Positions 6,063 to 6,301 of a DNA stretch of 24,792 nt are shown here, one piece after another (the first letter of the stretch is position 1; each line of letters begins with the position of its first letter). Source of the DNA: a virus (Duplodnaviria > Heunggongvirae > Uroviricota > Caudoviricetes); the IMG/VR virus record IMGVR_UViG_2648501235_000003, positions 1-24,792 of that record, one strand, 5' to 3'. The translations under genes and the position numbers were made by a program. The notes below the pieces were generated by a model. The model had not been told where the DNA came from and did not search any database. It was given only the letters and a program-made list of their open reading frames with translations.

Positions 6063-6096
6063 TACATCACCTCTTACCGTGATAATTGTTCACTCA

Positions 6097-6127
6097 CAAA
6101 AACAACAGGCACCTCACCGGGTGCCTG
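6097..6127 (-). terminator. Hairpin plus U-rich tract immediately upstream of the J ribosome-binding site
   Basis: Minus strand CAGGCACC-cggtga-GGTGCCTG followed by TTGTTTTTG. Confidence 0.35.
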
Positions 6128-6259
6128 CATCATGACGGAATAAAATTTCTGAATATCTTCACATTTTCACAAACTGACTGTGGTGCTAATAATTTCTCTG
6201 CGTTAATGTTTTTTGTCGTGACATAAGAATAATTCCTTACACTTAATCTTCGTAACGCT

Positions 6260-6296
6260 CCCGCAGTTCCTGTCCGTGAGCACTGCGGGATTTTTT
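6260..6296 (+). terminator. Plus-strand intrinsic-terminator-like hairpin in the I-J intergenic spacer, antisense to the late operon
   Basis: cccgcagt-(14-nt loop)-actgcggg followed by a-tttttt on the plus strand. Confidence 0.4.
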
Positions 6297-6301
6297 CGCT
6301 T

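Follow-up and report, generated by a model that had tools for sequence, protein, structure and literature searches.

Results

The I-J spacer and its flanking genes

The window (the whole 24,792-nt stretch of DNA that was analysed) contains the late (virion) operon of a lambdoid prophage. The operon reads on the minus strand in the order Rz, HNH gene, terminase small and large subunits and then, further downstream, tape measure, M, L, K, I, J, Lom and tail fibre. The subject of this work is the interval between genes I and J:

6302-6982, minus strand: gene I (tail assembly protein I), 226 aa, from the list of open reading frames; Pfam Lambda_tail_I, E=6.7e-16
6063-6301, no strand: AT-rich I-J intergenic spacer, 239 bp, between the J start codon and the I stop codon
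6068-6074, minus strand: Shine-Dalgarno sequence of J, AGAGGUG, 5 nt before the ATG, as read from the sequence
2655-6062, minus strand: gene J (tail tip attachment / host-specificity protein), 1135 aa; Pfam Ig_J, FNIII-A_GpJ, Phage_Tail_Tip and Ig_GpJ_C

The J start codon occupies positions 6062-6060 and the I stop codon positions 6302-6304, and since both genes are confirmed by Pfam, the spacer is indeed 239 bp long, as claimed in the initial annotation. Its AT-richness was confirmed as well, GC content being 0.37-0.41 inside the spacer and 0.55-0.64 in the flanks (150-bp windows). In E2348/69 and Sakai, the syntenic counterpart of gene I is labelled 'tail assembly protein'. Only two ATG-started ORFs lie within the spacer, one of 19 codons (6133-6074, minus strand) and one of 12 codons (6224-6186, minus strand), in agreement with the earlier description; allowing GTG and TTG as start codons adds mechanical ORFs of 26 and 46 codons. 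A consensus scan of positions 5800-6600 detected four terminator-like sites, compared with 1.1 +/- 1.1 in shuffled sequences, and two promoter-like sites, compared with 0.6 +/- 0.6.

In phage lambda, 60 bp separate the end of I (15444) from the start of J (15505), so the two genes are nearly contiguous there, as stated initially. Alignment of I-J junctions, proposed at that time as a way to recognize an indel, revealed that the spacer of the window carries an insertion of roughly 180 bp relative to lambda.

A predicted small RNA gene on the plus strand

The hairpin followed by T6, noticed initially on the plus strand, withstood closer examination. Its stem is formed by pairing of 6259/6260-6267 with 6282-6289/6290, the T6 run occupies 6291-6296, and the fold of 6200-6297 (-25.3 kcal/mol, z = -3.2) was equalled by none of 200 dinucleotide shuffles. 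A near-consensus plus-strand promoter at 6166-6193, missing from the initial annotation, lies upstream. The elements on this strand are as follows:

6166-6193, plus strand: predicted sigma-70 promoter, -35 TTCACA at 6166-6171, 16-bp spacer, -10 AATAAT at 6188-6193; 10 of 12 consensus matches
6200-6296, plus strand: candidate PasB-family small RNA, window-type allele; predicted primary transcript of about 97 nt
6221-6233, plus strand: A-rich tract ACAUAAGAAUAAU, containing A-R-N triplets; putative site for the distal face of Hfq
6243-6251, plus strand: putative seed, conserved single-stranded core UUAAUCUUC (in DNA letters TTAATCTTC); unpaired region directly 5' of the terminator
6259-6296, plus strand: predicted intrinsic terminator of the small RNA, stem CCCGCAGU/ACUGCGGG, 14-nt loop, then A and U6

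Judging from the promoter, transcription is predicted to start at about 6199-6201. The published 5' end of PasB from E2348/69 aligns to window position 6214/6215, which corresponds to an RNA of 83 nt. The two positions are about 15 nt apart, and processing or a second promoter is therefore possible. On its other side the gene reaches almost to gene I, the end of the T-run being 5 nt from the I stop codon.

Comparison of alleles indicated which parts of the RNA are kept. The 7-bp terminator stem CCCGCAG/CUGCGGG is invariant in all 10 aligned alleles, while the loops vary. Since the stem never varies, the alignment holds no covariation evidence for the structure of the small RNA. RNAalifold gave a consensus consisting of this stem only, the remainder being unpaired. 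Within the unpaired part, the seed UUAAUCUUC is the most conserved block, T47 and A49-T53 being invariant in alignment A3. A run of A residues is kept at the same position in every allele despite other sequences (AACAAAAACAAC, AAUAAAAACAAAAC, GAAAAAUAAC), and we propose that the A-rich tract may bind the distal face of Hfq. Such a combination of A-rich tract, open seed and terminator suits an Hfq-dependent base-pairing small RNA. When the window itself was searched for seed targets, the sole match to ACGAAGATTAAG, with up to two mismatches, was the complement of the gene itself.

Kinship with PasB of EPEC

PasB (pathogenicity-associated sRNA B) of EPEC O127:H6 E2348/69 is an 83-nt RNA of prophage PP6, encoded on the minus strand of NC_011601.1 from 1466343 to 1466261, for which the Northern probe was AATCCCGCAGTGATCGCGGAGCT (Table S6, PMC8550237). 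Its stability is Hfq-dependent, and its RIL-seq partners come from both the core and the accessory genome (PMC8550237). In the E2348/69 record, the PasB interval is flanked by 'tail assembly protein' (end 1466255) and gpJ (start 1466496) and is antisense to both.

The spacers of the window and of E2348/69 align end to end. Their J-proximal part of about 160 nt is almost identical, and the bodies of the small RNAs share 69-72% identity. This break in identity seems best explained by recombination or by accelerated change in the RNA body. Both RNAs are encoded between I and J on the antisense strand of the late operon, their terminators adjoin the I stop codon, and both share the promoter architecture, the stem CCCGCAG/CUGCGGG with its U-run, the seed core AUCUUC and an A-rich 5' half. 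They differ in the 5' module (GUCGUGACAUAAGAAUAAUU in the window allele, GCCCGAGUAACAAAAACAAC in PasB), in the linker and in the loop (14 nt and 11 nt, respectively). Zhu, Shabalina & Storz (2026 preprint) proposed a seed of PasB immediately upstream of its terminator, and the position of the putative window seed matches it.

To this pairwise alignment we can add a covariance model, R1, built from 10 alleles (E2348/69, Sakai and eight others) with all window-type alleles left out. In the window, R1 had a sole significant match, covering its full length at 6200-6297 on the plus strand (61.7 bits, E=1.1e-9); the next best scored 12.6 bits. Run on 100 loci, the model gave 80 matches, comprising 79 of the 80 IMG/VR loci with an I protein at least 96% identical to that of the window and one contig in a Streptomyces assembly (L087, 99% I identity), probably a contamination. 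All 80 matches have the opposite strand to I and start some 8-11 nt beyond its stop codon. Among the 100 loci, none was found at lambda-type or distant I-J junctions.

The same locus in EHEC Sakai

EcOnc22, EcOnc23 and EcOnc24 were described as plus-strand Hfq-CRAC peaks in Sakai prophages Sp15, Sp14 and Sp11, respectively (Tree et al. 2014, PMC4104026, Table S2), with a Northern band of about 85 nt that is destabilised in delta-hfq (PMC4104026). All three fall within the I-J spacers of the Sakai prophages, on the strand opposite to I and J; the homologous loci in NC_002695.2 are 2902691-2902930, 2676622-2676861 and 2166672-2166911. Table S2 uses version.1 of NC_002695, and a shift of +128 bp was applied to reach version.2; the shift was checked at 1.27, 1.78 and 1.94 Mb and assumed to hold at 2.17-2.90 Mb. 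AsxR, for example, is placed by Rfam at 1268629-1268681 in the current Sakai record and by Table S2 at 1268494-1268542, the respective positions of AgvB being 1941920-1941981 and 1941783-1941835, and the HnrS peak fits the terminator-bearing HnrS RNA only once shifted. After the shift, the EcOnc22-24 peaks lie 150-212 nt from the J start, that is, on the body of the small RNA. Shift or not, the sole plus-strand promoter and terminator in those Sakai spacers are those of the PasB homologue.

EcOnc22-24 and the window RNA agree in their I-J location, strand, promoter, seed UUAAUCUUC and terminator stem; the window allele differs from those of Sakai in having about 70% identity and another 5' module and loop. 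Sequence and position, with the EcOnc22-24 part resting on the +128 bp shift, appear to make PasB of EPEC and EcOnc22-24 of EHEC a single family with a conserved position in the phage. We found no published link between the two in the literature searched. A 2021 review gives the target of EcOnc22 as unknown, and validated targets of PasB or EcOnc22 were likewise absent from the literature searched.

Taken with the R1 match, these comparisons support the reading of the plus-strand hairpin as the putative intrinsic terminator of a divergent small RNA gene of the PasB/EcOnc22-24 family. The search against known families suggested initially thus had a divided outcome: published PasB and EcOnc22-24 are homologous and syntenic, whereas Rfam yielded no family. 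No match was obtained with the whole window at the gathering threshold, and at E<=10 the interval 5900-6500 had chance-level matches only (archaeal snoRNA models inside J); Rfam 15 contains no PasB family and no matching model. Neither universal presence of the spacer with no transcript ends nor a conserved small protein, the two outcomes that the initial annotation had set against its own reading, was encountered, and the homologues have mapped transcripts.

Allelic variation and cargo of the I-J junction

Variation was followed in a set comprising the I-J junctions of the 80 IMG/VR loci with an I protein at least 96% identical to that of the window, together with E2348/69 and Sakai. The transcribed region occurs there in 24 distinct versions. 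The -35 element CTTCACATTTT is identical in nearly all alleles without sodC. Most alleles have TATAAT, AATAAT or GATAAT as the -10 element, a single type has TATCAT and a single sequence GATAAA; the window allele has AATAAT and many others TATAAT. Conserved across alleles are also the leader GCGUUA..UUUUUU, the block UUAAUCUUC (replaced by UUGAUCUUC or CUAAUCUUU in a few) and the U-run after the terminator stem. Promoter, A-rich tract, seed and terminator stem are thus kept in four body types differing by about 30%. What varies, and reassorts, is the 5' module, of which there are four types, together with the linker and the loop, the latter of about six types.

Beside near-identical I genes, spacers of 234-260 bp are of the window type. 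Those of 338-344 bp carry another J-proximal module, one that includes a bidirectional terminator, and those of 295 bp a shorter form of it that lacks this terminator. The longest, of 848-851 bp, carry a Cu/Zn superoxide dismutase gene on the strand of the small RNA, followed by a window-type body without the usual promoter. A sodC gene was also observed at a Citrobacter I-J junction, and a lipoprotein-like ORF at Enterobacter and Pseudocitrobacter junctions. The I-J junction is an insertion hot spot with differing cargo.

Prevalence in E. coli and the published census

Matches to the spacer were found in 149 phage records, mostly of Stx-converting phages, and in 1367 of the 5426 complete E. 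coli genomes. The spacer of E. coli O55:H7 DEC5E / phage JLK-2012 is 99.6% identical to that of the window. Among the matches listed, no annotated feature (RefSeq/GenBank) lies under the spacer match. The window-type segment of 98 nt is present in 1370 of these 5426 genomes (in 1240 of them with an identity of at least 90%), and one genome can hold up to 8 copies of the allele; the E2348/69-type allele is present in 1208.

A recent census searched bacterial genomes by blastn with a word size of 28 and query coverage above 75% (Zhu, Shabalina & Storz 2026 preprint). According to the same work, no more than a few nucleotides set PasB variants apart. Exact words shared with PasB reach 16 nt in the window allele, 15 nt in the Sakai allele and 17 nt in a third type. 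Since these words are so short, a census with word size 28 probably missed all three kinds of alleles, and the published prevalence of PasB and its pathotype associations are for this reason probably incomplete.

A hairpin before J on the late strand

The spacer contains a second hairpin, on the strand of the late operon:

6095-6128, minus strand: terminator-like hairpin, 9-bp GC-rich stem (6 G-C), 6-nt loop, then UGUUUUUGUG

Positions 6128-6120 pair with 6113-6105, and UGUUUUUGUG corresponds to 6104-6095; counted upstream from the J start codon, the stem ends at 42 nt and the U-tract at 32 nt. The fold reaches -20.3 kcal/mol (z = -3.8), which none of 200 dinucleotide shuffles equalled. The initial claim of a minus-strand hairpin with a U-rich tract before J is therefore correct, and the hairpin displays the marks of an intrinsic terminator, namely a GC-rich stem of at least 5 bp, a short loop and a U-rich tract directly 3'. 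In 11 distinct close homologues, 97.3% of cells are paired, one pair shows a double change from C-G to U-A, and the loops differ. Covariation is weak, being confined to that one pair, and 40 of 500 shuffles reach the observed score. With respect to G-U pairs, the late strand is favoured only slightly (97.3% paired, compared with about 93.6% on the other strand, as counted from the homologue alignment). Most likely the hairpin acts as an intrinsic terminator or as the 3'-end hairpin of an RNA.

The I-J spacer of lambda (NC_001416, 15445-15504) contains a hairpin as well, AAACCGCC-UGCG-GGCGGUUU-UGUCAUUU, shortly before the J ribosome-binding site. Both hairpins consist of a GC-rich stem and a U-rich run on the late strand just before that site, but their sequences are unrelated and the 60-bp spacer of lambda holds nothing else. 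Further unrelated hairpins with T-runs precede J in Citrobacter werkmanii (70% I identity) and in Enterobacter, Rahnella and Pantoea (34-45%). Of the two hairpins noticed initially, the one on the minus strand does not belong to what is new in this spacer. From its distribution, the late-strand hairpin is apparently an ancestral lambdoid feature, older than the small RNA insertion and outside it. We found no description of the lambda I-J hairpin or terminator in the literature searched.

Additional terminator-like hairpins on the late strand of the window follow J, lom and the tail-fibre gene. The simplest reading of the hairpins along this strand would be a series of intrinsic terminators or 3'-end hairpins.

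Discussion

A spacer probably composed of two parts

The feature is real and mostly known already: it is a divergent, so far unnamed allele of a known small RNA family. We consider it probable that the spacer consists of two parts of different ages, an inserted small RNA gene of the PasB/EcOnc22-24 type and an ancestral hairpin on the late strand. The insertion of roughly 180 bp adjoining the I stop codon would carry a complete gene antisense to the late operon. By homology, the lysogen would use the promoter of this gene to make an RNA of about 83-97 nt (from 6200 or 6215 to 6296). This RNA would bind Hfq, probably via the A-rich tract and the U-rich 3' end, and would act in trans, probably by pairing of UUAAUCUUC with mRNAs of the host and of the accessory genome. 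Such a self-contained transcription unit, serving the lysogen and not virion assembly, would follow the 'moron' pattern. Going by established lambda biology, the late-strand hairpin, for its part, would halt the unmodified polymerase of the lysogen, and Q-modified polymerase would read through it in lytic growth. Expression, start site and targets of the window allele are what we infer here, and so is termination at the late-strand hairpin.

Similar RNAs are known from other places in prophages. The anti-sRNAs AgvB and AsxR and the RNA HnrS of EHEC are, like the window RNA, short Hfq-binding prophage small RNAs antisense to the late operon. They also resemble the window family in having conserved 3' terminator parts and variable 5' parts, in occurring in several copies per genome and in behaving as morons. 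Their locations are different, AgvB and AsxR lying downstream of PR' and HnrS between the Rz and terminase genes.

Identity of the window RNA with any of them was rejected. AgvB and AsxR (RF02702, RF02703) have no Rfam match in the window at the gathering threshold, nor at E<=10 in 5900-6500, and the same models do find the Sakai controls. HnrS (EcOnc10-12) was considered for its multicopy 'late gene' location, but its Sakai Sp9 copy lies between the Rz and terminase genes, and the HnrS core (CUUCUACCC...terminator) has no match anywhere in the window with up to three mismatches. Pairing of the HnrS type was dismissed too: HnrS uses CUUCUACCC with GGGUAGAAG, and the window RNA offers only CUUC; the duplex-fold energies in this comparison were dominated by unrealistic full-length duplexes. 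EcOnc33 (Sp6, about 71 nt), tried as an expressed window-type allele, adjoins the sialate esterase gene and lies outside the I-J spacers.

Alternative explanations

The best surviving alternative, although an unlikely one, is that the RNA acts in cis as an antisense RNA. Being fully complementary to the late I-J transcript, it might cause cleavage or block of late mRNA, either of its own phage or of a superinfecting one, with superinfection exclusion or altered J dosage as the outcome; or the abundant late transcript might soak up the small RNA after induction. The gene is wholly antisense to the late operon and ends 5 nt from the I stop codon, and a precedent exists in STnc6030 of BTP1 (PMC7067206). 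In Owen et al. 2020 (PMC7067206), this Salmonella prophage RNA is an antisense RNA within late structural genes by which the cognate phage is excluded, and the window RNA, its expression inferred from the homologues, would likewise be a prophage RNA antisense to late structural genes in the lysogen. The pattern of divergence could also be read in this way, since a body only about 70% identical beside a near-identical adjoining spacer, with reassorting 5' modules and loops, suits allele-specific recognition. STnc6030 is about 500-786 nt long, overlaps coding sequence and excludes by antisense pairing; the window RNA is shorter than 100 nt, is confined to non-coding DNA and is built like a trans-acting Hfq small RNA. 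Against a role in cis, the complementary part of the late mRNA is non-coding, with the J Shine-Dalgarno sequence at least 170 nt downstream; the best-conserved element is a short single-stranded seed, typical of trans-acting Hfq small RNAs; and PasB was joined to many unlinked RNAs in RIL-seq. A role in cis would be compatible with trans action as the main reading and would explain allelic diversification.

A more elaborate version, to which we attach slightly less credence still, combines both. Instead of being a single RNA with a few SNP variants, the I-J small RNA would form a modular, fast-diversifying allelic series, with promoter, seed and terminator held fixed and with 5' modules (at least four) and several loops reassorting around them. 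Antisense action in cis on the late I-J transcript that related phages make could drive this diversification, and the seed would simultaneously act in trans on the host. If this were true, it would mean allele-specific superinfection exclusion or control of J supply, and the late transcript, by soaking up the small RNA on induction, would tie host regulation to the lytic switch.

Returning to the reading of a trans-acting small RNA gene with an older hairpin beside it, we note that it leaves very little room for the spacer being an inert remnant of an old insertion, its promoter-like and terminator-like sequences functionless leftovers. The region is AT-rich and non-coding, the hot spot holds differing cargo (sodC, a lipoprotein-like ORF or nothing), and strong covariation is seen in neither hairpin stem, all of which would fit an inert remnant. 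Against this, promoter, seed and terminator stem are kept among alleles otherwise about 30% different, homologues yield discrete Hfq-dependent transcripts in two pathotypes, and the window-type allele resides in 1370 of 5426 complete E. coli genomes in up to 8 copies each. Among the three readings offered initially, that of a small-RNA locus is favoured by promoter, terminator and homology to PasB/EcOnc22-24; the insertion relative to lambda is confirmed as well, and only the word 'remnant' has to be dropped, because promoter, seed and terminator are conserved.

It is equally improbable that the late-strand hairpin marks the end of a second, minus-strand small RNA, either a short transcript or a 3' fragment of the I message, so that two small RNA genes would stand back to back. 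The hairpin with its U-tract does resemble a genuine intrinsic terminator, and convergent pairs of small RNAs occur elsewhere in prophages of this group. But the consensus scan found no promoter-like site on the minus strand within the spacer, no minus-strand Hfq peak at the three Sakai spacers is among those listed (PMC4104026), and the same kind of hairpin stands in the 60-bp spacer of lambda, where there is no room for a separate gene.

Finally, a small protein encoded by the 19-codon ORF (6133-6074) or the 12-codon ORF (6224-6186) is extremely improbable: both start with ATG, and the former has positional counterparts in E2348/69 and Sakai because the underlying DNA is conserved, but a Shine-Dalgarno sequence precedes neither, the 12-codon ORF falls within the most divergent part of the small RNA body, and the 19-codon ORF crosses the late-strand hairpin, where the compensatory change from C-G to U-A replaces Pro by Ser and Val by Met in two of its codons, a pattern that fits a constraint on RNA structure and not on protein.

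Significance

Three points are new here: PasB and EcOnc22-24 are probably linked, their family is broad and modular, and the J-proximal hairpin is apparently an ancestral lambdoid feature. A hairpin held before J by position, with unrelated sequences among lambdoid phages, poses a small question in late-operon biology. The general view of how prophage small RNAs act is unchanged by these results, and the practical gain lies in annotation and in definition of the family. About one complete E. coli genome in four holds this small RNA gene, which is without annotation among the matches listed and without an Rfam model, and its seed, conserved in divergent alleles, provides a defined element for mutation in the search for targets.

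Coordinates and origin of the compared loci

Table S2 of Tree et al. 2014 (PMC4104026) is given in NC_002695.1 coordinates, which lie about 128 bp below those of the current NC_002695.2. When they are left unshifted, several EcOnc small RNAs fall beside their genes, not on them. Among the genome-contig matches, lambda-type or E. coli-phage versions of gene I come from assemblies labelled Streptomyces, Neobacillus, Pseudomonas, Paenibacillus, Bradyrhizobium and others, where they sit on contigs that are short and of low coverage. Identical lambda spacers accompany most of them, and the contigs most likely represent contamination with lambda or E. 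coli DNA.

L001 4146-4211, minus strand: Sakai Sp9 locus at which the coordinate shift was observed (Table S2, PMC4104026)
L087, L090-L103, L105, L111-L115, L117, L118, L125, L127: genome-contig loci with I genes

Distal end and Rz-terminase region of the late operon

In the window, J, lom and the tail-fibre gene are each followed on the late strand by a terminator-like hairpin with a T-run, so that no intergenic gap in the distal part of the late operon lacks one. An ORF encoding a TonB C-terminal domain sits between Rz and the HNH/terminase genes, at about the position where Sakai prophages carry the small RNA HnrS; no HnrS copy is present in the window. A promoter-like site lies antisense within this ORF.

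2613-2636, 1938-1959 and 299-323, minus strand: terminator-like hairpins
22777-23118, minus strand: TonB_C ORF (Pfam TonB_C, E=1e-14)
22949-22976, plus strand: promoter-like site, CTCACA-16-TATAAT

Variation within the I-J spacer

In lambda, a 22-codon ORF, identified by eye, overlaps the I stop codon by a single base (TGATG), crosses the hairpin between I and J and terminates 5 nt into J (ATGGGTAA), a layout that looks like a translational-coupling bridge. The 19-codon ORF of the window (6133-6074) also spans the hairpin but starts 168 nt past I and lacks a Shine-Dalgarno sequence.

L006 945-1013 (NC_001416 15444-15512): lambda 22-codon ORF
L003 1205-1235 (Sakai Sp15), L067 and related spacers (corresponding to ~6075-6090 in the window): TGTCTGA repeat
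L045, L064, L071, L076, L081, L086, L059, L077, L079: sodC-carrying spacers, 848-851 bp
L108 2196-2720: further sodC locus
L010-L015, L024, L026 and others: 338-344-bp spacers with an alternative J-proximal module

Immediately 5´ of the J ribosome-binding site, the 7-nt unit TGTCTGA differs in copy number among prophages (about 2 in Sakai versus 4 in L067); the window-type J leader is devoid of it. On a larger scale, some otherwise near-identical prophages carry the Cu/Zn superoxide dismutase gene sodC inside the spacer (Pfam Sod_Cu, E about 1e-32), on the same strand as the PasB-family small RNA and with its own terminator. The window-type RNA body follows 3´ of sodC, without the usual -35/-10 elements. 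A Citrobacter prophage likewise has sodC at its I-J junction.

Spacers of 338-344 bp contain, in place of the window's hairpin, an alternative J-proximal module whose J leader is longer and whose terminator is strong and bidirectional (AAACCCCGGTATC-AGCA-GATACCGGGGTTT). Since this module is joined to the E2348/69-type RNA body in some spacers and to the window-type body in others, modules reassort within the I-J spacer.
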